Source: Bilabrum cf. latius (taxonomy: Eukaryota). Taken from it: a DNA stretch of 64,000 nt. The notes beneath the pieces are model-generated. The model did no database searches. It was given only the letters and a program-made list of their open reading frames with translations, and was not told where the DNA came from. Where the stretch lies: NCBI GenBank assembly GCA_965178125.1, contig OZ237738.1, positions 310,001 to 374,000 of the forward strand. The letters are read 5' to 3'. Shown piece after piece: positions 8,980 through 60,900 of this stretch. The translations under genes and the position numbers were made by a program. Position 1 is the first letter of the stretch, and the number at the start of each line of letters is the position of its first letter.

Positions 8980-11900
8980 TCACTGTTGCACATCTAGCAA
9001 CAGTGGACTCCCAGTGACATCTGCAGCCCTTGGATACAGGCTTGGTGCACTCAGCACCTAGAATTCTTCACAGGACCCTTGCCGACCCCCAGTGCACCTC
9101 CTTGCCTCTACTCGTAGCATAGAAGCAGCGCATGGCCGGTCAGCGGTAATCGGCCCTGCTTCATTGGCGCTATCTCGACCCCAAAGTAGTGCGATTTCAT
9201 ATGCCTATCCTCCAATCAGGCGCACCCCTCCTGCTGCTGGGCTGACCGGCGAGGAATCATGAACTGCGGGAGCCGCAGCCTTAACGCTACTTGGCCATGT
9301 CATATTGTGACTAGCGGTCGATTGAGCGCTGTCAGCCACTGGTGCTAGTGGATACCCAATCAGCAACTTGGCAGCATGGCCCGCTGGTGCGACAGCCCTG
9401 AACTCCCAGTCACCCCCTTCGCTGTACCCTGGACGGAACCAACCTGACCACCTTGCCGAGCCCACATCAGGTCCTATCATCGCAATCCCTGCCGCGCTGG
9501 TTCCGCATGCGTCAGGTAGACTCTATTGCCCAGCTGCCCAGGCCTCGAGGGCGGGATTCTATACGTCGCCCCCTCCGACGAATCGCCGTGGAAGCACGGC
9601 CCACTCCATGGAATGAGCAAGCGGTGCAGCAGAGGTGTCCGGAGTAGCTTCTATGAATGGAAAAGAGATATCCTCCGGGGCCGCTCTTGCAACTCCAGCA
9701 AGGCCATGGCCGCCCGCAGCACGTAACACATCTCCAGAGAGCAGCAAGACTCGGACCACGTACCTTCCGTCTCTTGGTGGGGCGATCCGAACGTCATAAG
9801 TACCCTACGAGGAGGGCTGACCGCCGCCTCTCGGCGACACAATCCCGGCACCAGTCCAACCGCCATACCTGCCTGCGCCCCCGACCCGCACTGCGATCAC
9901 GTCATCCCACGGGAGGGGATAGGTGGGAAGAGCCTCGCCAGCGTAAGGCAGTATGTTCTCATCAACAGGCCTTGCAAGCGCACGGCGATTTCCAAATGAG
10001 TCTCCGGCAACGGCGACAAAGTGCACTGCGCTTGGCTGTGCACCCGCTTCGCCATTTCCAGCCGCACCAGCCAACACAGAGTCAGCTCGGGCATCTGCAC
10101 CTAGCGAAGGTGGAATGATGCTTAGTGGATCCGATCCATTTAAGCGGATCGCAGACCAACCAACACTTGCACTGGCGACGAGATCAGATGCTTCAGTCCC
10201 GCTCCGCCTGCCCTGACCGTCAAGGGCTAGCCTAGCCGCTCGCAATGCCTCGCGCACGTCCACTGTGGGAGTGCTGTTGAATCCACCGAGCGCTGTCCCT
10301 GCCGGGTGCGCCAGAGATGGCAGCACCAGCATACGATAAGCGCCGGTTGACGGGGTGACTCCCCCCACCGAGACATCAACTTCATACTCACCTGCCACGG
10401 TAACATTGGCGCTCGCCAGATACCGCCCGGCGATACCGTCGGACCCGCCGACCAATCCAGCAGAGCTTGCAGCATCAATGACTTGCTGCACCGACAGCAC
10501 AGAGGGCTGTACCTCAATATCCTCACGAGCAAGCAAGACATTATTGGTCGCGGTTCCGCCTAATTCAATTCCGGGCGCGGCACTGAAAGTATCCAGGGTT
10601 GACGGCGTCGGTGCGCCCGAGCTCGGAGTAGTCCCTGGGATGAGAGAAAGGCGGGCAGAGGCACCACCAGAGGCAGCCTGCGTGAGATTGTTCCCGCCTG
10701 CATCTACTCCCTAGATCGCAAAGACAGTGCCTCGCCCAGCGACAGCGAGGGAGAGGCCTTGCCCCCACGCAAGCGACCTGCCAGCTGCTCTACCCGTGGC
10801 AACATTCAGCTTGAAAGGACTGCCTGGCACGCGCACTCGCTGGCGCACATTCTCGACCGTCACAGGCGGAGCCAGGACGTCTGGAATTTCGTAAGCTACG
10901 AGAACTTCAAGCCAGAATTGACCCGCAGTGTGTGGCGTATAGCTGACGGTCCACACCGCCCCGGCACTGCCACCAGACCTCCGCGCAGTAGCAACCTGTC
11001 TCCCAGCAACGGCATTAACTGAGCCTGGTTCGATGCGATTTCCGGCAGCGTCGAAAGCAGGCTCAAGTAGCACGGTAAGCACAGTCGCATCGGTCCAAGA
11101 CGACCCGTTGTCTTGTCGGGTCCAGCTGCCAGCTCCGTTGCGAAGCGGGTTTCCGAACCTGTCTCGCACCTCGACTTCGAACGAAGTCGGCACGTCTACC
11201 GTGGCAGAGTGCAGCGCTTCTCCTCGCGCCTGCGAGGAGGGTCCGTCAGGATACGCTGGAGCTGTCTCCAGCTCGAACCCGGACACCCCCGCTGCCCCGG
11301 CGCACGAAGGAGTTGGGCGACTCAGCCACTCGAAAGGCACTGGGTGGAGCGCACTCTCCACGGCATCGTCCGCCGACTCGCTTATTCCGCGGGGGGTGAC
11401 TGCAGCCTCAAGTAGGGACGTGTTTGCCTCTGCCAATCGCAGCCTGATCCAGTCAAATGCAGCCACTGACTTCATACTGCGCCGTGCTACAGAAGATGTG
11501 TATGTCACGGCGATTGGCAGGTATGGAGCATGGTCGGGTTGCTGGCGAACAGAAGCACGGGGCGACTGCTACGTAGGACCGGTTTCATTGCCTGCAAGAT
11601 GAAGCATCACTACGCTGCCATCATTCTGAACAGGAGCTGGGTACGTTGTGCTCTACAACGAGGATCCCGTGATCGCAGGCAAGCGGCGGCCCGGCTCGAC
11701 CCATCCCGCTACTCTGCTAAGAGAAAGTGCACCTCCGATAGCAACAGTGACTTCCGCGCCACTAGCCGCCTAAACCTCCACAATGAAGCCATCTGACGCA
11801 GGTGGCATCCTCAACCAGCCGTCCCACCGCACAGTTGTCGAGCCACGGTCCGCGAACGCATTCCATCCGCTTTCTCCGTCCGCGATGGACTTAAAGAGTC

Positions 11901-30065: not shown

Positions 30066-30592
30066 GTGGAGGTGCAATCAGAAGAGCCAACATCAGCTGC
30101 AGCCGGCTGTCCAACTGAACCATTCACCACTCTGCCTCTATCTGGGCGCTGCATACTCTACAGTCCCTGCACTGCCATCGCACGAGCAAGAATGCCTCGG
30201 CTAAGAGCTTCTGCGTAGGATTGAAGAACATCTTTGAGCGTGACATCACCAGCATTAGCACCAGCACCAGTACCAGCACCAGTACCAGCACCAGCACCAG
30301 CACCAGCACCAGCACCAGCACCAGCACCAGCACCAGCACCAGCACCAGCACCAGCACCAGCACCAGCACCAGCACCAGCACCAGCACCAGCACCAGCACC
30401 AGCACCAGCACCAGCACCAGCACCAGCACCAGTACTCAGCAAATTGTTCCCTGACCCGCTCGCCGTGGGGCCCCCTCCCACCCCTCCAGTATCTCCTGCA
30501 TCGGGGTGATCAGCCATGACGATGACAGAGCGAAGCGGCAGCAGCACCATCCGGCCCTGTCCCTGTCCCTGTCCCATGGCCACGTCTCCCTA

Positions 30593-30644
<52 letters not shown>

Positions 30645-31258
30645 ATGGCCACGTGTCCCTGCAGCCCCTCGAGGCACCATGCAACCAGCTTGTCGCTGCA
30701 GCTCAGGCATCGGCTGCGGCGCTCCGGAGGAATGTCGGAGCGGCCAGGCTTGAGCCTGCTTACACCCAAGGTCTGCCAATCCCTCGTGTCGGGCGGAGCC
30801 CCTGTGTTACTCGTGATTGCGGCAGCGGCGCCGGCGGCGCAAGGTTGACATTGCGGGGAGCCGGTCCAGTTGTACCTGGATGGGTCCTTCAGGAGGCGGC
30901 GCAAAGAGCAATCCCCGCATGGAGACTCACTCACTACAAAGTGCATAGAGCAGCTTTGGAGATGTTCGAACAGCTTGCTAGATCGACGGCTGCATCGCGC
31001 GAGAGCCACGACGAGCGAATGCTAGCAAAGAGCTTCAGCATGGCAGTCACTGAGCACACCGTCTTTGTGCTTAATGACTGTTTCATGACTGGGGCATCGG
31101 TTCCCGACACCTATGGCGCACACAATGGGATCTCGCCTGTCCGGATGCGTCGCGACAAGCGCGGCGAACACGCTCCAAGAATCTACGGGCACCGAGTGCC
31201 TTCCACGGAGTCTACTATAAGCTTCTAAAGAGGCATGAACGATGGCTTTATAATGCAT
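28946..31258 (-). CDS. ADAT1: tRNA-specific adenosine deaminase ADAT1/Tad1-like (A_deamin domain, no dsRBD seen) with low-complexity insertions (~770 aa)
   Basis: Motifs [55 protein letters not shown]. One frame joined through TAG at 31022, 30590, 30158, 29768, 29165. Ends TGA 28946-28948. Confidence 0.8.
30005..30064. repeat. (GCT)n microsatellite, ~20 units; encodes poly-Ser (AGC) in the ADAT1-like frame
   Basis: Pure trinucleotide run seen directly. Confidence 0.95.
30259..30432. repeat. (CACCAG)n hexamer array, ~29 units; encodes a Gly-Ala dipeptide repeat in the ADAT1-like frame
   Basis: Seen directly, with a few TACCAG variants (Gly-Thr). Confidence 0.95.
30555..30658. repeat. (CCCTGT)n hexamer arrays in a duplicated block; encodes VAM-(Gly-Gln)n twice, with one unit carrying TAG instead of CAG
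   Basis: Minus strand reads GTG GCC ATG (GGA CAG)n GGA TAG GGA GAC GTG GCC ATG (GGA CAG)3. Confidence 0.93.
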
Positions 31259-34355: not shown

Positions 34356-34499
34356 TCTCGTTTCGTGAGCCGGTGCATCGATGAATGGAGGGGAAGCTTG
34401 GAACACCTAACGTTGCCTTCTGGCTTCGCAATCATAATCAGACACATGCGCCCTACGCGCGCTAAACGTCTGGAGCAAACGCGTGATGACCGAACCAGC

Positions 34500-36392
34500 T
34501 CAGCCGTAGATCCCCCCGTCTTCCTCACCGTCCTCCCCGTCCCCCTCCTCCTCGTCGCCCCCCTCAGGCTCGAGCAAACCCACCAGCAACGCTCTGGCCC
34601 GGTCATACTTCTGGGTCAGAGCGCCCATGTCTCGCCGGAACGCTCCATCGAGCTCCTGCACCATCGTCTCCAATTCCTCCGCGCTCTTGGCCTTCAGGTC
34701 CTCCTCATCCACGGAGTAAATGTCGCGAGGCACCTTCCCGCCCGCGGAACCCTTGGGCTCCTCGCCGTGCCTGAACTGCGCCATGTACGCCGGTCGTGAG
34801 CTGGGCGCGGGCGCGTCCATGGCCGCCATCGTGCCCTGCTCCTCCGCCCCCTTCCGCCGCTGGTACGGCCCCGTGCCCACCATGACGAGGGTTCCCGGAG
34901 CCCCGCCTCCACCGCCCGATTGCCTGGGCCCCGTGCCCCAGGCCTCCTTCATCACCTTACCCTTCTAGATGACCGTCCCGTCCGCGTACTTGATCGTCTT
35001 GCCGCGCAAGGTCGCTAACTTAGACCGCAGAGTTCCAACTTTCATGGTGCCATCCGCCGCCACCTCCTGGCCAAGTCCGCCGGCACCACCTCGTGCGGCT
35101 TCGCCGTCGCCAGCACCTCCCCCTTCCTCGTCCTCCTCGGCGTCCTCCTCCAGCATCTCGGCGTCTTCCTGCCTCGCTGCGTCGATGGTGGGCAGGTGCT
35201 CCTTCACCAGGGCCTTGAGCACGTCCGACTTGCCGCCGTTCTCTTTCAGCCGCTTGGCCGCCTCGGCGCAGAAGGGGTGTTCAAGGAGCACCCTCACCTT
35301 GGTGCGGCGCTCCGGGTCCTTCTGCAGGCACTGCCGCAGGAAGTCGTTGAAGTCCTTCGACCACGCGTCGGGCGCGCGGACGGTGGGAGGCGGCTTGTTG
35401 GGGATCATGAAGAGTGCTCGCATGGGGTGCACGTCGGCGTACGGCGGCTCCCCGTCTGCCAGCTCGATCAAGGTGCAGCCAAGCGACCACACGTCGGCTG
35501 GGAAACTGTATCCGGATTCCTGAATCAGCTCTGCGGTATTGTAGAAGACATTTTACAGAAGGTCGGGGCAAGCTGGTGCTCTTTAATCCATCGATCATGC
35601 TGTCGCACAGCTCGCTATCGAGCACTGGCAGGGCGACTTTCGGATGGCGCGGGGTCCTTACCTGGTGCCATCCAGAACGGGGACCCAATGGTAGTATTTC
35701 GTTTCGAGAAGCTGTTCTGTAGCTAAGCAGACACCCCAAAATCAGCCTGCGTTCGGAAGTGGCTTGATGGTTCACGCGCTCGCACTGGGAGCAGCAATCC
35801 ACTGGATAGTTTCGTCCAATTCATCGCTATCTCACAAGCTTGGCTTCACCAGAGCTAGACAGCAATACATTGCCACATTTAAGGTCCCTATGAATGAGCT
35901 TCTTGGAGTGCAAGTACTCCAGACCCAGAAGAATCGCAGCCGTTGTCTCCTTTATCTGATCTTCGTTGAAAGTTACATCGCAAATGGCCATCAGATCTGA
36001 GGCCGATCCTGCCGCGCAGTATTCCATGACAATCTGCAGTAAAATAAATGCAATTCGCTACTGAATGGGTCAAAACGCGGGCGTGACTCTGGACTTCCAA
36101 GCATTGGCAGCGGTTCGCTTACCCAAAGATCCTGCTCCTGCACGAAAGCACCTCTGTATGACACCACAAATTTGCTGTTGCACTATTTTAGAATCTGAAT
36201 TTCCTTCACGAGCTCATCAATATCAGTTTCCAGTGGGATTACCTTGATCGCTACTTCGGCCCCCGTACCTTTCTCAACCGCGCTGTATACTTCTCCATAG
36301 GACCCTTCCCCCAGTCTCTCGACAAGGTCAAAGAGCTCCACTGGATCCTCAGTAGACACGCCAAGCCTTTCACGGGCATCATCGGAAGCCAT
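34500..36392 (-). CDS. STE20-family MST/Hippo-like Ser/Thr kinase with C-terminal SARAH-like helix (~527 aa)
   Basis: LGEGSYGEV, VAIK, EIQILK*C, IVMEYC, IHRDLKCGN, ADFGVSA*L, KRNTTIGSPFWMAPELIQE, ADVWSLG, HPMRALFMIP. Introns 36034-36122, 35747-35835, 35531-35661. TAG at 36183, 35723, 34965. Ends TGA 34500-34502. Confidence 0.93.
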
Positions 36393-36516
36393 AGTTCTTG
36401 TCAAAAGTAGGAATAATCCATCCATTCCATTAATAGTAACGTTTTGTTTCGGAGTTGATTAAAAAATCAGCGTTTTGTCTCAACGGGTAGGACGCCTACT
36501 GCTAGTACGGTAAAAG

Positions 36517-38723: not shown

Positions 38724-41700
38724 TCAGCTCGCACCACCAGTCGCAGCGCCACCACTGGAGGCAGCTTCACTGCTCTCGGCATGGCCGCCACATTCCCCAG
38801 CAGGCAACTCAAAGGTGTCACAGTGCGCAGCATAGACAGCATCCTTGACGATGCTACAATCAGACTCTTGCAGCCGCTTCAGGCCCAAATTGAACACCAG
38901 CCTGCCGCCCGAGAGCAAGTTCAGCGGCGTCTGGTTGCCCAGGACCTCCATCACGACGCAATAAAGCGTCATGGTCATCTTCGGACTAAACGGTGTAGCC
39001 ACGCTCCTTGAGTCTGGCAGCTCTGCTTCAAGAAGCCAGTCCAACCACGGCGCTGCGATCGGACACATAGCGGCCACGACGGGCGTGAATAGGCCAAGCT
39101 TCTCGAGCAGCTGATACTCAGGACGGCCGTAGTACAGCTGGATCATGAGCCACCAGCTGTGGCGAACTTCAGCAAGTTGAGACCTCACTTGGTGCAGCAA
39201 GTCAGCGCCCGATGGACAAGTCGACTCAGCTGCTCCGGCACCAGAGGCTGCACCGGCCTGCCCTTCCTCATTCTCGCCATCCTTGCACAGCACCATGGCG
39301 AGAAGGGAGAGCGCCATGGGCGCATCCTGAAGCCCCTTTTCAGATGTGTACGACAGCAAACGCTGAACCAGGCTATCTCTGACCTGATCGCGAAACTCGG
39401 CATAGGAGATCCTCTTCTCGCAGACTACAAATCCTAGCGGTTCGCCAGTCTCCTTTCGGTGCTTCTCCCCGGCCTCGTGGGCAGAAATGAACGCATCCAG
39501 GTCATCAACGGCTGGCAAACACGGCAATTGTGCCCAAGCACTATCTTCACTGGCATTGCTCGAAGCCACAGCCTCTCTTGCAACTTCTGCAGCTTCGTTC
39601 AGCAAGAGCACAAGGCCTAGCATGAATGCTACAGAGCAGTCACAGAGCGCGTCCATCTGCCGCAGCCCCTCGGCCAGCAGCGGCACATAACCCAACTCAA
39701 TAGCCTAGCGCAAGTACTTGGACCTTATCGCCTTGGTCGATGCGCTCAGGGTCGCAGTCACCACCGTTACACCCGCCTGCAGCATGCACATCCAAGACGT
39801 GAGTCTTCGGTCTACTCTGGCGACAAAGAGCAAGCACCTCTGCGACAGAAGCAAACTCTACTCCAGGACTTCTTCCTTGGACAAAGTGCCTGCTACAGCG
39901 GTGATAAACTCAGAGAGGGTTGGAATCGTCTCGGCTATGTCCAAAGTGTGGGCACGATGAGCCGCGAGTGCAGTTTCGCCAGCTGCAGTGCCTCTGGCAA
40001 CCCGCGTCAAGTCAGATAGAGCTGCAAGGGATGGAGCCTCCTCGTCAAAAATACCCCTAGCAGGCGATCCAGCTAGATACTGGGACAGGCGAAGCCTGTG
40101 CATTGCAGCGTATGCGATCGGGCCGGAGACTAGCGCTCCAGGCCTGGCTGCAGCGACGCTGCTGTCATCGGTTTCACCCGCATCGCAATTTTGTGACGCA
40201 ACGCATGCGATATGAACGCCTCGCATGCCAGATTCGACATGCTAAAACATGCCAACACAAGTGCAGTCAGTAAGCTAGAACATCTTGCGAAGGAGATCGG
40301 TGCCACGAATCTTTTTCAGGACGTCCCTGTGCTCCCATGCCCCCCAGATAGCCATGCAGGACACATTAATCCAGTCCCGGTAGGCACCGCTGGCTTCTCG
40401 AGTGTGCGTTGCAGTAGTTGTCCACCGGAGGTCTGCCTCCCGAGGGCAAATCAACTCGCGAGGGACCTGATCCAGTGGTACTCCACGGGGCAACATGTCA
40501 GCCAATGACCTCGGTGCTGCTGCTGATGCGGCCTGCCGTTCAAGCCCACCAGTTTTGGGCTCTGTTCCACGAAAATTGTGGCCCCAAGCACGCTCTGAGG
40601 CAAAAATACGGTTTTCTTCGTGCAGCTGCAAGATGCGAGCATGCCTTTCATCGATTTCTCTGCATAAATCGAACTATCCTAGCCCAGCTTGCTGCCCTTC
40701 GCAGCAAGCATCTAGCAAGATCCGTCGAGTGCCAGGATCAGATAGAAACACCGCAATGAAATTCACCTGAGACAATGATACCCTGGCAGGCCAGAACAAG
40801 TCCATCACGCTCGTATCTAGCACAGTCGACCGCGAAATGCACTTGCTGAGGACGGGCACGTTTCCTGTCGCGGTGCGACCATGGGCCGAGTTACAGACCG
40901 CTAAACCATATATGGGAAGCATCGATAGTCTCACCAGAATATCGCTATTTTCAGATATCTGCACATCATGCGTGCGGGCACTTGCGTCCTCTAGGCTAGC
41001 GAAGAGCCCCCTTGGAATCGTTGCAAAGTAGCTCTATGGATCATCGCTGGGGCCGCATCCAATGGCGTACCTTGCAAACTGAACTGCAAAAAACCCAACC
41101 TACTTTGGATCTGACTCGGCCATAGCAAAGTTGTCTCTGATCTGTTCAAGAAGTATGCGTATTTCGGTGTCCGCATCTGCTCCCCCACCATGCGACATGT
41201 CAGGCTTCTCCTTGGTCGCTTGGATCCATCGGTCCGCTGACTCTACGAATTGAGCGATTGCTTTCGCCACTGGCTCCATAGCAAGACCCAGCCTGTCAAT
41301 TTTCTCATCATCCGCCGAATCGACGATTCCGCGAAGCTCAGCAGCCGCCCGTTGTAGGGCGCCCCCACGAGCGTCGTACTCATCCCGCGCAGCCAACGAC
41401 GCCCTGAATGACCCCATGAGCAACCTCAGAAGTCGATACATTCGGGATCGTTCAAATCTGCATTGCATCAAGCTCGTTACAAAATACGCGAGCATATGCC
41501 AATCCGCAAGACCAATAATGGCCGCCTGACCGACAGCGTGTGCCATCTGGTCTGATGTTTCAACGCCAATACCCGGCAAAGCAAGTCTTGAGCAGCCCAT
41601 CGCAGCCAACTGGTAGATTCTCTGTCGGAGCAGCTCCGGCTTTGTGGGTCCCAGGTCAATCTGGTCAAGGAAGGACTCGGACATGTCCACGCCTGGCTTC

Positions 41701-44700
41701 CAGGCTTGAGCAGATCCTTTGAGTACCTCTAGCTTCGCAAGCAGTGGAGCCAGCGCTTCCTACTCGATTTCTGAGTTCTCTAAGACAGCTGCAATGCTCT
41801 CCAACCCAGTGGATACCTGCCCCAGCTGCTCAGCAGTCGAGGCAAGCAGGCGATCCAAATTGGACGATCTCAACGTTTCTAAGGTTGCCAAGCCGGGATC
41901 GGTGCATTCGCCTGCGCCAATGCCCCTGAACGGCATCAAGTCTGTGATGATCCACTAGAATACCTCCGGGTTGCACGAAGGGTGTAGGAGAGTCGCATTC
42001 ATTCTAAACTGGCGGCAGGCATCCGCAGCTGCATCCGGAGAAAGCTCACGGAGCGAGTTGAGATAAGCAGCCGTAATCTTGTGAAGCCGACTCCTGCCAG
42101 GACCGTTGAACGTGTCCGCCCACGCTAGCCTCCGCAACGGAATGCCAATAATCCTCCTGCGGTCAGTTTCAACCCCACTCGTAGTGTATGCGTCGACTAC
42201 AGCCATATACAAAGCCTGGCGCATGATAGGAGGGGCAATAGATCCGAATACAACCGGTCCATCCGTGCTTGTGCTGGAGGATGCACCTTCAGCTGTTGGC
42301 CCTCCAAGAAGCGAGTTCACCTGAATTTCAAGCCACTGCTGGACAGGCAATCCGAGGCAACGCTCTGACACGGTCCCCCAGCGCTCATGCAGAGATACTA
42401 GCTCGTGGCTGCATGCCTCACTTATGCCCCAGCTTAAGGACTCGTCCGACGGCCCTCGTCCGCACCTCGACGAAAACTCTCTCACCGCCGTAGACTCCGG
42501 GGGCAATCCGACTGGCGAATTCAGGAAGAACATCATTAGAGCAAATGCCTGGAAGCTGGGGAGACCCTCGGCCTCACCGAGCATCCACACAGCCTCCGCG
42601 AACTCAGGAGCTGCTAGCCTACACTGTGAGGGCATCTCGCCGCTCTTCATTAGGTCCTTGACCTGGCCAATCATCCTTGCAAGTGGCTTAGATACGGCAC
42701 CGGCAAGCTCCTTTGTCATTGGCAGTGTGGAAGCGCCCAATTTAGCTGTGCTTGCAGAAGACCTGCCTGCGTCGGCAAGCCTTGCGGCTGCCTCGAAAGC
42801 GTGCATGGCTGCCAAGTCCAAAGCACAAGCATCCTTTCCCTGATCACGCACCAGGACCTGAGGCCTCCGACCTGGCTTGAGATGCGGCAATGCCATTGCC
42901 GTGAGCTGCACCGACCGCGATGCCTTGATGCAGTCTTCTACAGTGGCCAGTTCGCCAACCTGAGCACCGATATTGACAGCAATGTGCTGTTTACCAGCCT
43001 CTTTGCTGATGAAGTCTTCAGGGTCCATGAATCCGCCGCAGTCAAACCCGTGCTCCAACAATACCGAATCGATTGCTTCAGCAGGCTCGGGGATGCCAAG
43101 CTCTGTGCCTGCCTCGGCTTCTTGCTCCATCTACTAAAGCTCAGCTTCGGGTAATTCGGGCGCGTACATGCCCATGACCGTGTTAACAGCGTGCTGATGC
43201 ACTAGCTATGTGTTGCGGTAGGCTGCCTCTACTGTTGCTTCAAGACTTGCACACAGGTCCACTTCAGAACCAATGAATGCGGTCAGCGGCCGCATCACGG
43301 GGTCATCTGCGCCGACAGAAACTCCTTCAGGCATGTCAGCGAGGGGGGACTCGCTTGTTCCAAGGTAGCAAATGGCCCGAGACCGAGCTACAGCGGAAAA
43401 TTCCACCATTTGGCTGACGACATGCTGCAGCTGCTGCAAGACAAGGAAACGCACAAGGCTGGGCCTTTCATTGTGAAAAAAATGGGGAGGCGATGCAGAC
43501 ATTGAGACCACTACCGTAGGCCGACCGATCCATCGGACGTGGACACGAATCTCAAGCGGCGACATGAGATTCGCCATTGCTACAGCTATACCACACGTGA
43601 AGTAGCCAGGACCGGTCATGCCCTCACGTGCTTGCAAGCGTGAAGCAAGTCCAGCGAGGGACAAACCAGCCTAAATTCCTTTCATTATACTTCCATGCAC
43701 CTCGATAGATCTCTATAGAAGTGCGTGAGCATGGGATCCCCGACTGACATCTGCTTGGAGCACCTTGCGGTTGGTTGCGGCTGTGGTTCGTCGCTAGGTA
43801 GCCACGATCCACGCTTGCAGAGTCCTCATCGCCTACGCAGCATCCATATCGCCTGCAAAGATCAGAGCGAGTACGCCTCTCAATGGCTCAACACGCTCTA
43901 ACACGCGGGCAAAGCCTCGATGAAGCTATCTCCGATCTGCGTATAGTTCAACTGAATCTGTCAGAGTGATAGAGTCCGCACCTACCTCTGCTAGAGGCGG
44001 AAATCCACCTTCGACTGGGCTATTCGCTGCACAAAGCACCAGTATTACTGCCAGCTTGGCCTCGACTCCTGCGGGCCAGCCACTCTTGTAGAGAGTCACA
44101 GCTATCTGGTGCCGTGGATACTAGTCCAAATCACGAGAGCTTCCTAAAGGACTTGTCTAAAGCGTTAACGCATCGCTGGCCTGAAAATTTAGCTTGCCAG
44201 TCCGACGCAAACCAGATTCCGTGCTTGGGATGTTCCCAGCATCCCAGTGAGGCGGGAGCTTTGCAGCGGTTGAAGTCTAGCTGAACCATCCAGGCCTCAC
44301 CCGAACACTTCCTTTTCCGGCTGCACACCATTGCATCTGGTAGCAGTTGGATGACTACTATGCGCTGCATGCGGCTGATGTTCTAGGCAATGAATCACTC
44401 CACCGATACTACGGCGGGCGGTACGGCTTGTCGGGACCAGTGGAGCCTGCTGGATCTCCCGACAACTGCAGCAACATCCTCTAGCAAACAGGGATAAACT
44501 CGGGAAGCTCCATGCCGCAAACCTAAAGTGATGGAATCCTGCTCCACTCCCTTGCCAGGCTCGCTGGCTCCTCACCATCAGGAGAAGGGTTTTTACCAAG
44601 CCAGACGATACCGCCAGCGTCCTGCACGTCAGCGGGGCCACATGACAGCGCAGCGTCGACAAGGTCAGCGAAAACGGGTGGACTGATCTCATTACTTTGC

Positions 44701-47700
44701 ACCACATGCTGTGAAAAAGACATGATCTAGCCAGAGACGCCTACCGCAAGAGACAATTCTGCAAAATCCATCAGCTGCTCGAACGAGCAGCACTCCAGAG
44801 GAGCCTATGCAAGAAGCTAGCACTCGTCCAGCAAAGTCGAGGCAGCATCTTTGTCTACATCGGTTGAGTCTAGAATTGCCAACAAATACTCAGCAACTCG
44901 AACGCTCGAAGATGCAGCCGGCAAGTCCGCTGGCTCGTCAACCGGAATTTGAAACCGTAAGGTCTTCGAGGCTGCGCCCAGCTTTCCGACTTCAGGAAGT
45001 TGCGAGCTGTTTTGGCCAGAAAGACTGCTCAAGGTACAGCAGGCTCGCATCATAAATGCCTGCGAGGTGTACCCTCGCTTGCCTCGGCCTTCTGCGTCTG
45101 GAGCATTCCATGAACACCCCAACTAGCTCATCCAGTCCACGTACGGTGCTTCGCCGTCCGGCATGCGTTCAACTGGATTCTCCAAACCGTTGATAGGTCC
45201 TTCCGAGGGGTGCACTTGAAAGTACAGACCCGATTGTTTGATCGCTGGGTGCATGAATCCGCTTTTTCGGTCCTCAAACGTACCCCGAAGAACACCGACG
45301 GCGAATCGGCTGATCAGCGTACTTACGCTGATACCAACGACCGCTGAAACTTGCGCAGATTCGACGCCAAAGCTGCTGAAATCCATTGGAGCAACATTGA
45401 GTAGCTGCATGGCAATTTGCCACTCGATCGATTCGTACACGTCTGCACGATGCGCTAGCGTTCGGAGAGCAGCTGCAAATGTTGCGTCTGCTGGCAATTC
45501 TGGGCTTACATCAGAGCCCATCATCGCCGCGAAACCAGCAATCTCAGCCCTGAAGTCTGGTGCTATTTCAGCAGCACTCTCCAAAGAGTCTGCTACGTGC
45601 ATATCACCAGCACCTGCTCCTGATGCTGCTGCCCTCCCACCCCGACCCATTGCACCCGAAAGACGAGCCGACTCAAGCTTGGACGCAGCGTCTGCCTCAG
45701 ATTTGCTGCTACCGCTCAGGCATGCCCGCGCGGATGCCATATTCACTACGCGATATAGCCGTGATTCTAGGGGCACCTGCCTTTCGGCTACGTCAAGTTC
45801 CAGAAGCAGAGAAATGGCCAAGCCAATCGTCTCGGCCTGCTGCTCAGGTATGTACGGTCGATGCATCCGCGCTCGGTATTTAGACGCGTGTTCCTCTGGA
45901 TTCTAGATCGCCACCGAGTTCAGCTGCAAGTCAAGAGCTAGCATCGTCATTGCAAGGGCACTGCGAAGCATGCCAGTCCTGTGGCCCATGGCTTCGCTAG
46001 GTACGACGGCAGTTGGCTTCCTCGACGATTCGTACCTGCTCTTCGCCTCTCTTGCCAGCTGGTCTGCCCTGCTATCATCATCGCCAAGCATTACTGCAGC
46101 GGGGACTCGCACGTCCTTTCCCGCGGGAATGTGAAGGCTCGCATCCCCTCTTGCAGAGCGGCATGCTTCTCTGTAGCTCCTTCGCGCGGCTCGAGCTGCC
46201 ACGAGCAAAGCACTGCAGTGCTGCTAACCGTGAAGCTGCGCACTGTTTAGGCCATCTACAGCAACCCATGATCGCCATGGAGAACCATCGTGTCCTTCTG
46301 TTCGCTCCAAAATGCCTGAAATTGTATCGATGTGCGTCCCAGAGTTGCACACTTGCCCAACACCAAGGCTGCTTGCGTCATTCCAAGTAGACCTGGCATA
46401 CTCCTCCGAGACTGGTGCATCCGCATCGATCTTGCACTTCTCGAGGCCTTCGGCTACAAACACTTCCAAGGGCTGCGCAAGAGCCTCAATTGAGCGCTAG
46501 CACGCAGCAAGGGACGCCGAAGGAGAGGGAGCAAGCAGGCCCATGACCTCAAAGAGGCGGGACTTCATCTCGGACATAATCCAAAGTGGAGGCTGCGAGC
46601 TTGCAGCCATTTCAACGAGCTGAGCACTCGTTGGGCGGCCTGTGGACCATGAAATTGCAATGCTGTCCTAGCTAGTCGATGGGCGTGGAAGGTCAAGGCA
46701 CAAAAAGCCTGTCTCAGCCGCAAACACGTCTTCTCCAACCACGCGGTCGAAGGCGCGCAAGCCAGCGTAGAAGCCATCGTAATGCCTCGCATGCAATTTT
46801 GTACAAGCTTGGAGACATTCTGCTACTTCGGCAACTAGTGCAGCTGCAGTCTCCGTTTCACGAACGCCAAAATATTTCCCGTGAGGCGATGCTGGATAGT
46901 CCTAGGCTCCGCAACGAGCCAGAGTCAAAGCGAGCTCAAGTCGAGAGGAAGCACTCTCAAGGCTACCTCGTCCGTGCAAAGCATCGCAACAGGCTGCTAT
47001 TTCCACTTGCAGCTGTACCTTAGCTTTAATTAGGTCATCATTTATTGTCGGGAAGCATTGGTCCACTTGAATCATCGCGGCCAACCTCAATGGGTGCCTA
47101 GGACCGAGGGTTGCTGTTGCTATGGAGAGAGCGACCAAAGATGCCTACAATGCAGTGTTTAGGGGCACATCATCAGGCTATGGCTCAGCTAGACTCTACG
47201 CCCGTGCAGCAGGAAGCAACGAAAGCATGCCACCTTTGTACAGCTCTTGCATATTGCTGGGGCCACTGGCCTTGGGAATGGACACTGCGCGAAGCCTCGC
47301 TTCCACGTCGTGGGCTGGGAGACACGATAACTCGCCTGGGCATCTGGAAGGCAACCTAGCTTCGGAATCATCAAGCGGTCGTCGAGAAGAGGTGATCTGT
47401 ATACTACGCAGCGCCTCCTGCATCGACAGCGGTTGCCCATGCCTATCGTCCTTCTCCACGTGGGATTGTAACGCAGCGAGAGATGCAGCCGCATGCCGGC
47501 AAGCGTGAATCTCGCCATGCAAACTCAGAGAGAGTCTCAAAGGATCGCTTGCATCGCCTAGTTCAGGCAATAGTGCATCCGAAGATAACATCTTTTCTCG
47601 AGACAAACGAGCGATGCCGCTGTCGTCAAACACAAATGGCGAATTTGCCACGGACTTTCCGAGTGTTCGCTGCAGGCCAGAGAGCCAACTCTACGCCTTT

Positions 47701-50700
47701 AGTCGGCTCTTAAGAAGCGACTCAGAATCGCTGATGGCCTCCGGCTTGTGACGAGCCACCAACGCAATAAACTGAATCCCGGCAGCTCGCACCCACCTCG
47801 AGACGTAGTCCCGATCCTCCATCCGTTGCTACCTTCGCCTCGCCGCGAAACTGTCAGGGCTCTGCTGTGGGGCCACGCACACATTTGAGAATTGGTTGAC
47901 TACTTCGCGTAGCTCTGGGCCGCAAATTTGACCTTCCTTGCGCAAGTATCGCGCCAGCTGCAGCAAGAGCGACACTGTGGTGTGTGGGTTGCTGGACTTT
48001 GGGGGTGCCACATGCAGCAAGGCTTCACGAATAATCCGAACGGCTGTCGGAGTGGCTCCAAGTCTGGCGTACACGTCGGCATGCGCAGCCAGGAAAGCCA
48101 CAGACAGACCACTGTGGTCAGCCGGGACGGCGCTGTGGAGCTTTGACTCGAAGGCGCCCTCACTTTCTGCTAGCGACTCCAGTGCTTGGTTAACACGGGG
48201 GTCTACGACCGTGGATTTTGATGTTTGATGCCCAGGAAACGGAGCACCGCATCGCAAAAGGAGGGGGTTGGCAAGTTGGGCCCCCAGCGGCGTTGAAATC
48301 TGCTCTAGGCTAGTCTAGGTTGCGGCCTCAGGTGCCCGGTCCATCTGCAAATGAAGTGCAATCATGGTGTGGTTAACTTCAGAGGCAAACGTAGACAACG
48401 GAGCACTGCTGAGCAAGCCAGTGCTAGGATATGTCTCATACGTGTGCATGATATCGGCTGCCACTCGCAGGTTGCGTGGATGGTATACCAGGACTGAGCG
48501 ATGCTTCCACGGCTTCATCTCGAATGAGGGTGACAGCTGCTGAGCGCCGTAGTCGGCAAACACGAGATCTGCATCGATACCCAGCTCTTTGCCGCATGGT
48601 GACTCTGCAGCTTCTAGAATTAAAGCAGCAGCTGCTGCCTCTATCGGAATTGCGTCAAATGCCGCTTGCTTGTCAGCGACGACGTCAAGCACGTCCTTTC
48701 CGTTCTTCTTTTCGAGCGCCTTGCGCAGCAGAGGAAAGTAATGGCCGTCAACAAGGTCTAGCGCAGAAAGAGCCTCCAATTGTCTGGGAGTAAGCGACTC
48801 GATAGCACCAGCTTGGACTTCAGACCGCCCAGGGAGGTCTGGAGCCAACGATGGAAGCGGTGGTGCTTCTGGAGAGCCATCGCTGTTCAGCAGCCTGCTG
48901 TTCCCAACGAAGGCAAACCGTAGCACTTCTTGGCGCTGCTGAGAGAGGCAGAATGCATGCAGCAGCCTCTGCCGGTTTTCTGCCACCTAAGCGGGAGAAA
49001 AGGCGACTTGAACCGGCAGGCCGTGCTCGTCCTTCGTCTTTCCTCCTATCTCGCCGGCATGTAGCCTGACGAAGTGGACGTCATTAGAGTTCATTTCCTC
49101 GAGCACTGCGTCCTATTCTGTTGGGTACAAGTAGGACGCCGGTGCTCCTGGCTTTTCTCCAGCAAACATTCCAGCCAGTCCACCCATGCTCCCGACCGGC
49201 ATGCCTCCTGCCTCACGCATGGAAGCCCTGCTCGCTTCCAGTTGTTGCAGGCGCTAAAGAATAGCTGCCGGCGGGGCTGATAGCTGCCCTGAATCTTCAG
49301 ATAGAGGGTGTGGCTTGGCTCCAGGCATGTACTTAGCATCTGGAAGGAACCGTCGAGTCCCGATACGAGCCAGCTGGTTTGAAGCGGTGCGATCCAGGTA
49401 CTGCTAGAGCTCCCTGGAGGGCTCGCAGTCCATCCTACGCAGGATGTCGCGGCAGAGCAAGCGGCCATGGAGAATGGACCGCGGGTCGAATCCAGGCTCC
49501 TGCTCATCCTTGTCCAGGCTACAAACGCTTGATGCCTCCGCCAGATTATGACAGTCATACATGGCAGCAATAGCATGCTTTAGGGTGTGTGACCAGAACT
49601 CGGATGGGGTGATCAGCCCGCCAAGCACCTTCGTGCAAAGCGCTTCGTCGGCAGCAGAATCTAACCCTCGTCCCATGCCCAGCTGCCTGAGCAACTCGGC
49701 TATGCGGCCGCTCGCGCCGGCCTTGCCCGTTGCCTCCCGCGCCAACATATATGAGACGGGACCGAGAGTAGCCGGGTCCCTCTTGTTGTCGTCCAGCTCA
49801 AATAACCAGTACATTGCCTGCATTGCGGCCTCCTCCGATCGCTCCATGATCTGCAGCACTATCTCGTCTGGAACGTCCATACAACCTGCTGGTGACACCG
49901 CGCGCTGCTCGGCCATCAGGTGGTCGACAGCAAACTGTTTGATGCAGCTCTCAGGTGATTGTACCGCAGAAAGGACACTAGGGTGGGGTCCCACTCCCCC
50001 CCACTCATTGATAGGATGCTCGAATGCGAGCGACTTCTCGAGCCTGGCACGCACTCGCAGAACCTCGTCATCCTCCGTCGGTGGATCGCAGGACCCGGCC
50101 CCCGATGCAGCACCACCACCGCTGGTACTGGCACTAGCAGCAGCCACAGACTCCTCGTGGTCGGCTGCGCTACCGCTCACGTCTAAATCACTGCTTTTAG
50201 CCGCGCTGATCTCTTCTTTGAGTCGCGCAAGTAGGCCAGGGTGACGACGCTGAACGGCCTCCCAGGCAGATTCCCGCGTTGCCTTACGCTGCCGGGGGAG
50301 TTTCCAGAACGGCATTCCCCAGGCCTCTCGCATGCCTTCCTGCAGCGCCTTGCGCTTGGCCTCCTCATTCAGGCCCAGCGTCTCCCGAGCAGCCCGCACT
50401 TGCCTCCGCATCTCTGTCCGGGACACCTCGATGCACACCTCGGCCAGCAATTCGGCCACCATGGCACGCAGTATTGTCATTCGCACGTGCGGTTTCACGC
50501 ACTATGAACGAACCAAGCCCATATAGCGGACTGGCAGCCCGAACTTTCGCAGTATGCGAAACACAAAATCGGTGGTGTGGTTGGCAGAGGGCATGGCTTC
50601 GAAGGTGCGGGCTGCCAGGCACACAGCGAGGGTGATGAGGCGCTTCCGACGCGGGGCCAAGCCCTCGTCGAACTTGTCGCACTCTTCATCGTTCTTCTTC

Positions 50701-51954
50701 TACTCGTCACTGCCGTCTGGATGCAAGCGCCACGGGTGTGCGAATGCCTCGTGGAGCGGGTGCGAGGGCGTGTCTCGGATGTACTCCGTTGCGGTCTTGT
50801 TGATACCCCTGGGCACTGCGTAGAGATCCGTGAGCTCCTTCAGCGCAGCTTTGCAGGATGCAATCGGGCTTGCACGACCGTACACGCTGGCCTTCTTAGC
50901 GGCACCCGGACCGGCGGCAGCGCCAGCACCGCTGCTGGCGCCTGCCTTGGATCCTCTGGCTGGCGGCATGTCTGGCTCGCCGGAAGAACCCTCATCGTCC
51001 TTTTCCAGCTTCTGCTTGGTGATAAGCATGCAGAATGCCCTTGCCTCCACCTCTTCGAGGCCGTACTCTCCCAGATTGGGTAGCGCGCCGTGAACCCTCA
51101 TGTGCGCAAGCTAGTCCAGGATGATGGCAAGGTCAACTTGCTGCCTGTCTTTGTGCAGCAGCCCGCATGCACGCGTAAAAATTGGATCCTCTGGGATGAG
51201 GCTGCTCGCAGTCAGCGTCCTCTTGGCTCCGGATTGCGTGTCTGCCACAAGGACGCGCCGGTCTGCCCTTGAGCTGTTGTAGAGCAGGCTCCTTGAGACC
51301 GAGGCGAGCTCTCGGAGAGTGCTCTTTCCTACATCTGAGCTTATAAACGCATGGCGTGCTCGCTCTGACCACGGCATCGGATGCCCTGCGTGCTGGCCGC
51401 AGGTTGCGAACGTGTCAACGCCTGGAGCCTCGACCAGTGTTGCGGAAACCATTGGCACGGGAAATTTGAAGCACTCAGAGAGCAGCAGCTGCGTCTTAGG
51501 GACTGCTGGTTGACAAAGTGCCCCACACGATGATATGCCTGCGACGAATTACTTCAAGTGAGGTGATCAATGCCAGTACTCCAATCAGAATGGTACTGCA
51601 ACATAGTTCCAGGGCAAGCCAACAACTCACGGAGCTTTTCTTGCGCCATCTTGCTCCGGACCTCGTACAATGGCGCGTTTAATGAGAATAACGCCAATCC
51701 AGATCCCTGCAGTGCTTGGGCAAGCGGTGAAGCCGCAAATTAGCTGGGAAGCATCAAGATCTCAGTGACAGCCAGCCTGGTTCGAGTCTCACTTTATAGC
51801 AAACACCACCCTGAGTTCGACCTTTGCTTGCTCCAAGCAGTTCAAGACATATAATGTCGTACATACTGTCCCTTGACTAGGTCGTTGCTTCCATAATGAG
51901 TCGCCCCGCTGTGCGACCCAACTCCGATGGATCCAGGACCTCCCCTTCCACCAT
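38724..51954 (-). CDS. Giant protein (~4,350 aa) with divergent Clu (clueless/TIF31)-like N-terminal part and TPR-like helical repeats
   Basis: Nineteen listed minus-strand ORFs between 38724 and 51458 are in one frame. Every internal ORF end is TAG and the gaps contain only TAG (~48 in total). Ends TGA 38724-38726. Introns 51707-51792 and 51539-51630 are phase-consistent. The Clu-like call rests on weak resemblance (RKFGLPVRYMGLVRS*C..VRMTILRAMVAE; ATLGPRHP), so the product is less certain than the gene. Confidence 0.72.
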
Positions 51955-54008: not shown

Positions 54009-55655
54009 TTAACACTCCGAATGCCCAGCGTCTTGCATGACGATGAAGCCGATTCCCAGAGCAGGCATGCTAAACGGCTCGTCGGCGGGGCGCCGACGCG
54101 GAGACAGATCTGGCAGCGACCCATCAGGCAGCAAGTGCAGGTCTGGGCCATCATTCAGAGCCGCGAATCGGGCCTCGCGAGGATCCCTCTGGGTCGCATC
54201 CACACTTGGTGTCAGCAACCACTCAAGCCAATCTGTGTCCTTCAGCCCTTTAGAGGTGGCCTTCACTGCTTCGCCCCCGCCATCCACTTGGATTTGTACG
54301 GTTTCAGTCAACGTGTTCAGCAGCATCAAGGTCACAGATCCCTTATTGTAGCCCCCCGCAGGAGCCCTGCCGCCACCGGAGCAGAAGGCATAGGCCAAGA
54401 CCGGGGGTTCCCCGTCCCCTCGTGCAAATTGCTGCCCACTCATGGACACCGAGGCTCTCAGCACGGAGGCCCCCGCGGTCATCTTGAATAGAATGCTCAC
54501 CCAGTAGTCGACTGCGACTGGATATGGCGCTGAATCGGGACCGGCATGGACCGCAGGTTGCACGAAACCAAAGTGCTGCGAGTACAGGTTCCACCTTGAA
54601 TGCATCCTTAGCCCAGCTGCCGACGTCTGGCCGAGAGAAGCAACGTAGAAGAACGCGTTGGCGAACCCGACCATGTCTGGTCCGTCCATGTCGTAGCACG
54701 AGTTAGTCTCTGTCAGCTGCAGCGCCACACCGGCTTGCTGCAGCCCAGTGCTCTGCCACTGGCGCCAGCACTCGCTGGCGTTGGCATGCAGGTCATTCAG
54801 CCACACAGACTGTCGCAGCCACGTTGAACTAAACATTTCTTCGTAGTACTGCGAATGGTTCTTGCACGTACGGGCGGGGTACGAGTGGTAGTTAAAGGCT
54901 TGCAGGAACGGCCTCGTGCCTTCCATAAACGCCGCTGAGGTCTCGTCGCACATGTCAGTGGAGGGCCCTTGCAGCTCCGGCCGGCTAGCATTGCTGGTTG
55001 TGCCGGTGCCCCAAACTGAATCAAAGACCTTGCTAAGCTCCAGATAGTCGCGAATATTCGTCGACATGTTGATGTGTAGAGATCGGGTGAGCTCGTTTCC
55101 CATCTCCACGCCCTGCAATCGGCCTGAGCTTGCCCGTTCAGGATGGTCGTGGAACCATTCGAGCAAATACTTGGTGTTCGTTGAGTCCCACGAACCACTG
55201 CAAGTCCAATTCTACGGACCTCCGCACTTTCTCCCGTACAGCTCGTTCACATCGAAAACGAGATCAAAACCCGACGACTCCGTGAAGTTCAGCAATACAT
55301 TCATGTCGGAGCTGCTGAAAATCTTGTCTCTGTACGGCCAGTAGCTCTGCAGCTGCGCCTTACTGCCGCCAGAATCTCCCAGCGAATAGTTCGTCCAATC
55401 CCCGGATATACCTCCAACACGAAAGAATGCCGGAGATAGAGACGACGCGACTTTCTGGAAGATTGGGTTACTCAGCGTACTGGTTGTGCTTAGAAAGCTG
55501 TACATCTCTTCGCCAATGGAAACGAAGCGCGGGTCCAGATGTGCGATTTTTTTGCCAACTGCAACTGCAGCCCGCCGGTGAGCCGATGCAGGGCTGGATG
55601 GGCGCGGTTCAGACGCCGCAGCAGCACACACTACAAGAGTCAATAATGCTAGCAT
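54009..55655 (-). CDS. Secreted/lysosomal glycoside hydrolase family 79 (heparanase-like beta-glucuronidase), 548 aa
   Basis: Signal peptide MLALLTLVVCAAAAS. Motifs LDPRFVS, LSPAFFRVGG, GFDLVFDVNEL, GSWDSTN, EMGNE (acid/base), NYHSY, LTETNS (nucleophile), DYWVSILFK, AYAFC, FSMPALGIGFIV...C. One TAG at 55212. Ends TAA 54009-54011. Confidence 0.88.
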
Positions 55656-57995: not shown

Positions 57996-60900
57996 TCACA
58001 CGCTTGCCCCGGCATCCGCGGCGGCGGCCCCTCCCTTGGCCGCTGCAGCTGCCTTGGCCGCTGTCCGCCTGGCAGCCATCGAGGACTTCTGGTCCTTTCG
58101 CAGTCCCCGGAGGCCCTGGGCCCTGCCGAACTTGGCGGAAGTGGTGCTGGAGCCCGCACCAGATCGGCTGGCAGCCATAGGGTTGACCACCTGGCTGCCT
58201 GCGCCGCGACCCATTACGGCAGCATCAGACCCAGCATGAGTTCGCTGGGGCGCAAATGCCATGCCAGACTTCCTTCGGGGCGCCTTCGATCCCCGCCCCT
58301 CGCTCTGTGCCTTGGCTTGCTCCTCTGATTGCATGGCAGCCAGCCGGTCAACCCGAAGCGCCTCGTTGTCGTCTAGCACGCCCTGCACCAGCTCCCTCAC
58401 GTTATCCCATTGTCCCGGTGCTGGAGGCTAGCCTCCGTTTAGGATCTCCGTCAGGGTCAGCCCACCGACGCTGCGTGTCGCGGCAGGATCCACGGAACCG
58501 GCGTCCAGAGAGCGCATGCTAGCCTTGGCAACGAGCGGGTTGTTGTGGAACTGGGTCTGGGCATCAGCGTCGCCGTCTCTGCCTGACTCTGGTGCGAATC
58601 CAGCAGCAGTACCCGCGCCCATTTGGAAGTCTCCATCCTTGGTGACGCCTGCTTTGCGAGCGGTCTTGCCCTGCTTCACACCAGCCATTGTCTTCTCCTC
58701 CCGGCGCTTCTTCTGCTCCTCCGTCTCGCCGAAGCAGTTTGCGGCTGCTTCGGGCTGGAAGACGATGAAGATCTCGATGAACACCACCGAAAGCCAGTAC
58801 ACGATCGAGCTGAAGATGATCAGCAGCGCAAGGTACGTGAGGGTGTCACGCTCCACGGTGTTCTGACCCGATGAGGCGAAACGGTCGCTCTCGAACATGA
58901 GGCCAGACAGGCACAGGAGCACAGCGCAGAACAGCAGCGTGCTCTCAAGTCCGTTGTACGACAGGAAGTACAGACTGGCAGAGGAAATCATGTGATTGGC
59001 CTGCTTCTGAGCCTCTGCAGCGGACCAGCCATTGCCGCCTGCCGGTGCCGAACGGACACGGTTGCGACGCATTTGGTCGCGATGCTGGGCTTCGATCTTG
59101 GCGTGCATGTCAGAATACCGGGCCTTGATGGCATGCTCCTCCAGCACCAGCTTGTGGTCGCTGGGTGACATGTAGGGCTCGTGCTTGGTCTGCAGCGTGT
59201 ACCCGATGAACAGCACGAGCAGACTCATGGCCAGCTGGTAGGACGGGACAGTAGCGAACATGAGGCTGGTCAGCGCCAGTGCGAACTTGCGGGCGAAAAG
59301 CACCAGTATCCAGTACCACTTGCCAGGCTTGAAGAACTGGTACATGCGCGAGAACTTCTTGCGGAACTCGTACCCATCGTTGCCAAGACGCTCCCTGGTC
59401 TCGGGCTCGTCGCGAGCACGGGACAGCTGGTCGCGCTTGACCATTTTCTTGTTGCTCCAAAGCAAGTACCCGATGAACACTGGGAACGCGATAATGTACA
59501 CGATCAATGCGATGATGGCGAAGGGCAGCAGTGTCAGGTGCGTCCCACCGGCCTCGTAGCACTCGATGTCAGTCTGGCCGCCCATGTACCTGGCCGTGTC
59601 AGGGTTGCTGCCATCCTCGCCCACGATGCGCTGGCAGTTGAACACGTCCAGAGTGAAGCGAGACAGCATCAGGTCTGCGATTTGTGGCGGGGGCAAACAA
59701 ACAAATTCAAAGGATAGCATGAGATGCAAGTACTAGCAGGCTTCTAGCCGAAATGGGCCAATCACGAGATAGGATGCAACAAGGGAGAGGACTCACAAGC
59801 CACGTATCCGAACACCAGGAGCACGGAGATCAGCTGAGGAAGGTGGCCGTTCAAGTTGGTCGTGTGGCCAAGCACGCAACGCTTGTACACGAGCTTGGCA
59901 ACGTGAAGGATACCGAAGAAGACAGCCACCAGCAGCGGCAGAACCATGAACGCGAACCACTTGCCCTGGTAAGCGAGCGACGGCACCACGCACTCCGGAG
60001 CCGTAAGCTCGATGTTGAGGTTGAAGGCGGACATGATCTGGAACATCTGCCGGATCAGCTCGGGCCAGGCGATGCGAGCAGAGGCGAAGATCGCAAGCAC
60101 CTGGAAGTAGTCGATTCCGATCTGCGAGATGGTAGCGGCACAAGGACAAAATTGAATGGGAAGTATGCTAAATATACAAGAAGCAAGGACGATACGACGA
60201 GGAGATCAAAGCGCTAGCTCACGCTGATGAATGCCAGGTTCACGTTCTTGGAGTTGAGCACGTACGCAGCGCCACCAGCCACGCATGCGGCAGCGATCAG
60301 GGCAAGGAACAGCAGCCATGGGTTGTCCGGGCACTCCTCGCAGAAGCCGTTGATGCGGTAGTGCGTGCCCTCTGCGCAAGAGGCGCAGCGCACACCCTCG
60401 TACCCATCAGCACACACGTTGTTGCCCAGGCAAGCCTCGGCGGGCTGGCAAGCCACGAACTCTGAGCAGTTGGTGCGCGTGAAGCGGCGCTCGGGGTGGC
60501 AGCGGGCGCTCGGCTGCCAAGTCCACACTTCATTCTCAGGGTTGGCCTCGTCGGGCGCGAAGAAGCCGTTCTAGTGGGTAAGTCGGAACCAGCCCTCGAT
60601 GGCGTAGGGCTCGTCCAGGCGACCGGGGCACTCGGCACCATCGGGGCACTGCAGGCAGTACTCTCCGTCCTGTCCGTAGTAGTCCTTGGCGCACATGAGC
60701 TGCAGCCGGATGCGGTAATCGCGCTCTTCGAAGTGACTCGTCTAGCCTGCCACAGTCACGGTCAGATTCTTGTGGCCCGCGCGATGCCTTGGCAGTGAGC
60801 AGGTCAGCTCGTCATCGGCCTGCCACTCGGCGTCTACGCACTCAAGCCCGCCCACGTTGATGCTGACGGGCGTCTCGGTCACACCAAAGTTGATGCCCAA

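Follow-up and report, generated by a model that had tools for sequence, protein, structure and literature searches.

An otherwise open protein kinase gene that is crossed by in-frame TAG codons raises the question of whether TAG terminates translation in the organism concerned or encodes an amino acid and, if the latter, which amino acid it encodes and whether TAA has changed its meaning as well. Such a gene, encoding a Ste20 kinase of the MST/Hippo type, lies on the minus strand between positions 34500 and 36392 of a 64,000-nucleotide stretch of DNA deposited under the name Bilabrum cf. latius (assembly GCA_965178125.1, contig OZ237738.1, positions 310,001 to 374,000). We refer to this whole stretch as the window and count all positions from its first letter. 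Our analysis suggests that the window is nuclear DNA of an intron-poor eukaryote, rich in guanine plus cytosine (GC), in which UAG is likely to be a sense codon, most probably for glutamine (Gln), and in which UAA and UGA terminate translation. On the same reading, the two TAGs within the kinase domain simply encode Gln in a gene that is expressed and spliced. An earlier inspection of the letters (hereafter the sequence-only reading) had argued for Gln from these two codons; its conclusion was right, on grounds somewhat weaker than claimed.

In-Frame TAG Codons in the Window

With the standard stop codons, the longest open reading frame (ORF) in the window spans 979 codons; when TAG is read through, with TGA and TAA as stops, it spans 4275. 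Two ORFs delimited by TGA alone (4228 and 4281 codons) hold 30 and 47 in-frame TAGs. In 15 coding segments comprising 16,875 codons, we counted 109 TAG, 0 TAA, and 0 TGA in frame, whereas the two remaining frames of these segments (33,720 triplets) contain 272 TAG, 130 TAA, and 709 TGA. TAG is about equally common in and out of frame. In-frame TAGs occur in 13 of the 15 segments and account for 15.8% of the putative Gln codons. This pattern is far beyond chance.

The GC content of the window DNA is 55-67%, and its ORFs carry a range of Pfam domains: HECT; katanin p80 WD40 with con80; an ADAT/ADAR-type deaminase; the heparanase-like GH79; cadherin and TIG; filamin and EGF; LRR; and MIT. The HECT ORF has six TAGs upstream of its catalytic domain; it aligns as far as the final residue of HUWE1 (GFGLA), where TGA follows.

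Structure and Splicing of the Kinase Gene

The kinase gene comprises four exons separated by three GT..AG introns (Table 1). Its spliced coding sequence has 527 sense codons, with TAG in frame at codons 70, 164, and 373 and TGA as codon 528; apart from the three TAGs, no stop precedes the terminal TGA. The positions given for the first two TAGs in the sequence-only reading were exact, and both lie within this coding sequence. The Pfam Pkinase family matches all four exons in consecutive segments of the profile. Human STK4 and STK3 (MST1/2) are the best matches of solved structure for exons 1 and 3: residues 14-90 of exon 1 match with an E value of 3e-23, and the 28 residues of exon 3 align end to end (6e-8). 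The protein carries the motifs HRDLK, DFG, and WMAPE.

The resemblance to human STK4/STK3, which are Hippo kinases of the GCK-II group of Ste20, may extend from the kinase domain motifs to a SARAH-like helix at the C-terminus. In the last 86 residues, Mst1_SARAH is the only family match (E 0.0025), although its 18.2 bits fall below the cut-off of 23.1 bits; the relative P0006 exceeds this cut-off with 24.4 bits. The window kinase also differs from the human proteins in its long, acidic, and Gly-rich linker, which holds a lineage-specific motif, LRGKTIKYADGTVIQKGKV, that it has in common with environmental relatives only. The catalytic loop, the C-lobe, and the SARAH-like tail all lie downstream of kinase TAGs. 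The sequence-only reading had held that a stop would cut the kinase before its catalytic loop. This applies to codon 70; codon 164 follows HRDLK (approximately codons 138-142) and stands directly behind DFG. In public predictions made with the standard code, the last kinase exon is split at codon 373 into two proteins, P0003 and P0143: P0003 ends exactly at this TAG (...GTVI), and P0143 corresponds to residues 193-342 of exon 4.

A search of sequencing runs identified DNA runs that contain the whole kinase stretch and three further runs with approximately 65% of its words. We compared contigs, not reads, from four runs with the stretch: X1 (DNA), X5 (study P2), and X6 and X7 (study P3). The X1 contig is collinear with the window and keeps the introns. 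The contigs from X5, X6, and X7 omit exactly 35531-35661, 35747-35835, and 36034-36122, with borders CT..AC on the plus strand and, accordingly, GT..AG on the gene strand, such that the three introns proposed from the letters alone proved real. Over the kinase exons, exon 1 included, these contigs contain no letter that differs from the window. Because intron-less contigs join the exons without a single base difference, the spliced product keeps the kinase TAGs, and UAG-to-CAG editing was not seen in the spliced kinase contigs of X5-X7. All three spliced contigs stop 1-2 nucleotides upstream of the kinase ATG (36392), at 36393-36394, with no loose end, which suggests a very short 5' untranslated region or a graph break at a shared leader.

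Table 1. Coordinates of the kinase gene and of other features of the window, with the codons found at kinase positions compared between the window and the syntenic metagenome contig L001.
Feature	Positions	Strand	Window codon	L001 codon	Details
Kinase exon 1	36123..36392	-			codons 1-90: ATG, glycine loop GEGSYGEV, VAIK lysine, helix C; Pkinase profile positions 2-73
Kinase codon 70	36183..36185	-	TAG	GCC (Ala)	EIQILK-TAG-CNSKFVVSY; gene strand GAA ATT CAG ATT CTA AAA TAG TGC AAC AGC
Intron 1	36034..36122	-			89 nucleotides; GT..AG; skipped in X5, X6, X7 contigs; kept in DNA run X1
Kinase exon 2	35836..36033	-			codons 91-156; catalytic loop HRDLKCGN; Pkinase profile positions 75-139
Intron 2	35747..35835	-			89 nucleotides; GT..AG; joint 35745/35835, cut one place further right
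Kinase exon 3	35662..35746	-			codons 157-184 and one base; DFG, activation segment
Kinase codon 164	35723..35725	-	TAG	CAG	ADFGVSA-TAG-LQNSFSKRNT; gene strand GCT GAT TTT GGG GTG TCT GCT TAG CTA CAG
Intron 3	35531..35661	-			131 nucleotides; GT..AG; contig joints
Kinase exon 4	34503..35530	-			C-lobe, acidic and Gly-rich linker, SARAH-like C-terminal helix; Pkinase profile positions 169-262
Kinase codon 251			CAG	TAG	
Kinase codon 373	34965..34967	-	TAG	CAG	GTVI-TAG-KGK
Kinase stop, codon 528	34500..34502	-	TGA	TGA	L001 likewise ends GGIYG TGA
TAA at codon 579 of GH79 heparanase-like ORF	54009..54011	-			probable gene end
(GGACAG)x8 followed by GGATAG	30585..30640	-			in frame in deaminase-like ORF; TAG in CAG slot of Gly-Gln hexanucleotide repeat
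ORF of 4,227 codons	8983-21663	-			tenascin-type EGF repeats, filamin repeats, one in-frame intron
Giant orphan ORF of 4,280 codons	38727-51566	-			47 TAG; no Pfam family

Usage of TAA and TGA

Were TAA also a Gln codon, the ratio of CAA to CAG in the coding segments (160:423) would predict approximately 41 in-frame TAA. Seven TAA are found within the ORFs that run from TGA to TGA, and all are explained as non-coding. Five of these stand no further in than codon 76 of an ORF, ahead of codons at which translation could plausibly start. A sixth lies inside a 159-nucleotide GT..AG intron (20774-20616) of the 4,227-codon ORF, where the frame is kept by chance. The seventh most likely ends the heparanase-like gene: the alignment to human heparanase ends at query residue 573, where it reaches residue 381 of 387 of the human chain, and TAA is codon 579, which places it at the homologous C-terminus. 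Gene ends confirmed by homology therefore number three, comprising two TGA (kinase and HECT) and one TAA (GH79). Collectively, 109 TAG without a TAA or TGA in frame, set against some 41 TAA expected, and a heparanase-like gene that appears to end at TAA indicate a code in which UAG encodes Gln and UAA and UGA are stops. TAA appears still to be a stop in this organism.

Residue Encoded by TAG

A syntenic ortholog of the kinase was identified on a 9,342-bp metagenome contig (L001; 57% GC) that carries the same three neighboring genes as the window. The four kinase exons are 83%, 89%, 96%, and 73% identical between the two; over 352 columns of exon 4, reaching the C-terminus GGIYG that both have, the identity is 70%. 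The L001 kinase likewise has an in-frame TAG, and the aligned coding stretches are free of TAA and TGA. The replacements are reciprocal: at codons 164 and 373 the window has TAG where L001 has CAG, and at codon 251 the arrangement is reversed. Flanking residues at these three pairs are identical or near-identical. The position of codon 373 is also Gln in the relatives P0004 and P0005.

We then tallied residues among 165 homologs aligned to the kinase, counting a homolog only if at least 5 of 12 flanking residues were identical. At the column of codon 164, Gln was found in 74 of 100 homologs (others: Glu 11, Val 6, Lys 3, Thr 3, Leu 1, Ser 1, Arg 1). At that of codon 70, Gln was found in 22 of 60 (others: Lys 10, Glu 7, Asp 4, Arg 4, Ser 3, Gly 3, Asn 2, Ala 2, Leu 1, Thr 1, Val 1). 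The column of the L001 TAG held Lys 39, Gln 34, and Arg 26 of 158. By mean BLOSUM62 score, Gln ranks first at both window columns and second to Lys at the L001 column; summed over the three columns, the scores are 6.84 for Gln, 3.29 for Glu, and 3.22 for Lys, and those of Leu, Tyr, and Trp are negative at every column. The sequence-only reading had treated both window positions as hallmark Gln columns of Ste20 kinases. Human STK4 and STK3 do have Gln at both. Across the homologs, the description suits codon 164 and not codon 70, where Gln is in the minority and L001 has Ala.

Further indication comes from the deaminase-like ORF, in which eight in-frame GGACAG repeats are followed by GGATAG; this would be the outcome expected of a C-to-T transition in a Gln codon. 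Five TAGs are shared unchanged between the copies of an inverted duplication described below and one differs, a comparison of little weight. Given the reciprocal TAG/CAG pairs in L001 and the summed BLOSUM62 scores, Gln is most likely the meaning of TAG and is better supported than Leu, Glu, Tyr, or Trp, as the sequence-only reading had proposed.

Other candidate sources of evidence on the residue proved uninformative. In the HECT, MIT-domain, and GH79 ORFs, as in the EGF repeats, the TAGs fall at unaligned, inserted, or variable positions. An iterative alignment of the TIG repeats, intended for scoring TAG columns against sister repeats, recovered only the seed and its duplicate. The giant ORF at 38727-51566 has no relative among proteins of 2354-7490 residues, and its 47 TAG columns are therefore not scorable.

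Alternative Explanations

Several observations weigh against UAG as a Gln codon with UAA as a stop. The first concern TAA: its absence in frame is partly circular, since coding segments were trimmed where TAA occurred, and its role as a terminator is supported by one gene end only (GH79). Independent of this trimming are the comparison with off-frame triplets and the places in which the seven TAA lie. Other observations concern the residue. Kinase codon 70 pairs with Ala in L001. Of the two next-closest relatives of the kinase, P0007 has Asp and Lys at the columns of codons 70 and 164, and P0006 has Lys and Gln. Non-Gln residues at both columns in close relatives had been named in advance as telling against Gln; P0007 shows this combination, and the closest ortholog, L001, does not. 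In the deaminase-like ORF, the TAG at 31022-31024 (minus strand) aligns with an Arg of human ADAR2 (HAEIISRR) in the region of the conserved DCHAE motif, which makes it the one conserved-motif TAG at odds with Gln. The sole TAG difference within the inverted duplication sets TAG (58430) against AAG (8190). Eight TAG pairs in the katanin-like and neighboring ORFs are with Arg, Ala, Glu, Leu, and Gly, in poorly conserved stretches with a flank identity of 4-10 of 16. Finally, the labeling of X5-X7 as RNA is a tool's guess, with X7 flagged as probably DNA and none recorded as RNA, and the 64-kb window contains neither a tRNA with the anticodon CUA nor an eRF1 gene.

The alternative that survives best, though we consider it unlikely, is that UAA and UAG both encode Gln (UAR, as in NCBI table 6) and that in-frame TAA is missing merely through GC-richness. 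UAR-to-Gln is the commonest variant code in the account given in PMC11687900, TAA is rare all over the window (199 and 191 occurrences on the two strands), and a single gene end speaks for TAA as a stop. However, codons ending in A are not scarce within the coding frames. CAA accounts for 27% of CAA plus CAG, the corresponding shares of GAA and AAA are 30% and 21%, and those of other A/G pairs range from 14 to 53%. Even the lowest of these, the 14% of TTA, predicts approximately 18 TAA beside 109 TAG, where none was seen in 16,875 codons, and TAA does occur 130 times off frame in the same DNA.

It is likewise quite improbable that TAG encodes some other amino acid, of which Glu and Lys would be the most plausible and Arg, Leu, and Ser less so. 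Reassignment of UAG to Leu, Ser, or Glu is known elsewhere (cases covered in PMC11687900). The mixed column of codon 70, in which Lys, Glu, Asp, and Arg together account for 25 of the 60 homologs, would accommodate such a reading, as would the AAG of the paralogous copy in the inverted duplication and the Arg of the ADAR-type motif. Against this, CAG is the partner codon in three of the four kinase pairs that include TAG, and GAG, GAA, AAG, and AAA are the partner in none. The predominance of Gln at codon 164 and the summed scores, in which Glu and Lys reach about half the value of Gln and the negative values at every column speak against Leu, Tyr, and Trp, point in the same direction.

A dual meaning of TAG, sense within genes and stop at some gene ends, seems very unlikely. 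Codons that act as stop or sense depending on context occur in Condylostoma and Blastocrithidia, where other codons are concerned. With three gene ends checked by homology (two TGA, one TAA), an occasional TAG terminator could go unnoticed in such a sample, yet in none of the ORFs of the window does homology end at TAG, and a FAD-synthase-type ORF with TAG at codon 146 stays open for approximately 270 further codons without TGA or TAA. That the TAGs are untranslated, owing to a pseudogene, an assembly error, or UAG-to-CAG editing of RNA, can hardly be entertained: we found no evidence for it, the spliced contigs of both studies retain TAG and show no differences, the 109 TAGs are spread over 13 of 15 coding segments devoid of TGA and TAA, and in a related organism (L001) the same kinase gene carries TAG elsewhere in its sequence.

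Comparison With Known Nuclear Codes

The closest parallel to a code with UAG as Gln and UAA as a stop is that of the fornicate Iotanema spirale, whose nuclear genes, as described in the relevant part of Panek et al. (2017; PMC5304391), use UAG for Gln and UAA and UGA as stops, with UAA as the primary terminator. In both organisms UAG alone has been reassigned to Gln and UAA kept, such that the two codons are decoupled. They differ in that UAA is the main terminator in I. spirale, whereas the three gene ends of the window are two TGA and one TAA in DNA of 55-67% GC. We found no evidence that the organism from which the window derives is a fornicate. The same code variant has been described for the ciliate Protocruzia tuzeti and for two lineages of phyllopharyngean ciliates, with several independent origins (in the sections of PMC11687900 that deal with them). 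The gene content and composition of the window (60% GC, 12-kb intron-free ORFs, and GT..AG introns of 89-159 nucleotides) appear unlike those of a ciliate.

More distant parallels are the organisms in which both UAA and UAG encode Gln, comprising many ciliates, Ulvophyceae, Hexamita, Streblomastix, and Amoeboaphelidium protococcarum (passages of PMC11687900 and PMC6299283); cases with and without retention of UAA are also covered in part of PMC9161772. The window shares TAG as Gln with these table 6 codes and departs from them in TAA, which is a sense codon there and which in the window is absent from the in-frame codons and probably ends one gene. Elsewhere, UAG has been reassigned to Leu in an uncultured rhizarian, and to Ser in Scotinosphaera, and one ciliate with Lys and Glu is on record as well (as listed in PMC11687900). 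No case of UAG reassigned to Gln in a stramenopile or labyrinthulid was found in the open PMC and bioRxiv literature, where the known cases alone came up.

The window presents a real and well-supported stop codon reassignment of a rare kind that has already been described, and probably a new case of that kind. A further possibility, which we put forward tentatively, is that it represents a so far undescribed lineage outside the ciliates and fornicates in which UAG was decoupled from UAA independently and in which the trait is present in at least two related taxa, namely the organism of the window and that of L001.

By analogy with described cases, decoding would involve a dedicated tRNA-Gln with the anticodon CUA that reads UAG but not UAA. 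The release factor eRF1 would have lost recognition of UAG and kept that of UAA and UGA, as has been proposed for I. spirale, where a T32G change in the GTS motif of eRF1 is suggested (part of PMC5304391). The only tRNA that a scan of the window returned was a tRNA-Gly(CCC) called by ARAGORN at 9871-9947 on the minus strand, inside a giant ORF of the same strand and with no Rfam match at the gathering score; this is probably a false call.

Additional Features of the Window

Segments 2620-8580 and 58052-64000 form an inverted duplication of 5,970 aligned bases with 96.4% identity, which contains a 598-codon multi-pass membrane ORF together with the C-terminal part of a 2,187-codon cadherin/TIG ORF. 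At this duplication the window may run through either a palindromic segment or a pair of diverged copies. In the deaminase-like ORF, in-frame microsatellites (30100-30640, minus strand) encode extended tracts of Gly-Gln, Gly-Ala, and Ser that separate the two halves of the catalytic domain.

Two observations bear on the affinity of the organism. Tubular mastigoneme proteins (PDB 9ufe, E 7e-8) are the best matches for the EGF repeats in the 4,227-codon ORF, and this match to stramenopile proteins is a weak hint of a stramenopile or SAR affinity. A mate of P0007 in its 90% cluster, the nearest relative to bear a name, is labeled Stk3 [Symbiodinium sp. KB8], likewise a weak hint of the SAR supergroup. 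A search for named relatives of the katanin-like WD40 protein was swamped by bacterial and fungal WD40 proteins and gave no taxonomic information. In addition, identical spliced kinase transcripts (34400-36500, X5-X7) are filed under two organism labels that differ from those of the DNA runs. The source organism may therefore live alongside other organisms or be present in their cultures.

Implications

Standard-code gene calling breaks the genes of the window, and its two ORFs of approximately 4,200 codons would fall into dozens of pieces. That UAA appears to remain a stop, a point absent from the sequence-only reading, is of more interest than the reassignment of UAG itself, and a GC-rich organism that terminates at TGA would be an unusual setting for a change in UAG. 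With every additional independent case, it can be tested whether a tRNA with the anticodon CUA allows UAG to evolve separately from UAA, and the accompanying changes in eRF1 come to light.

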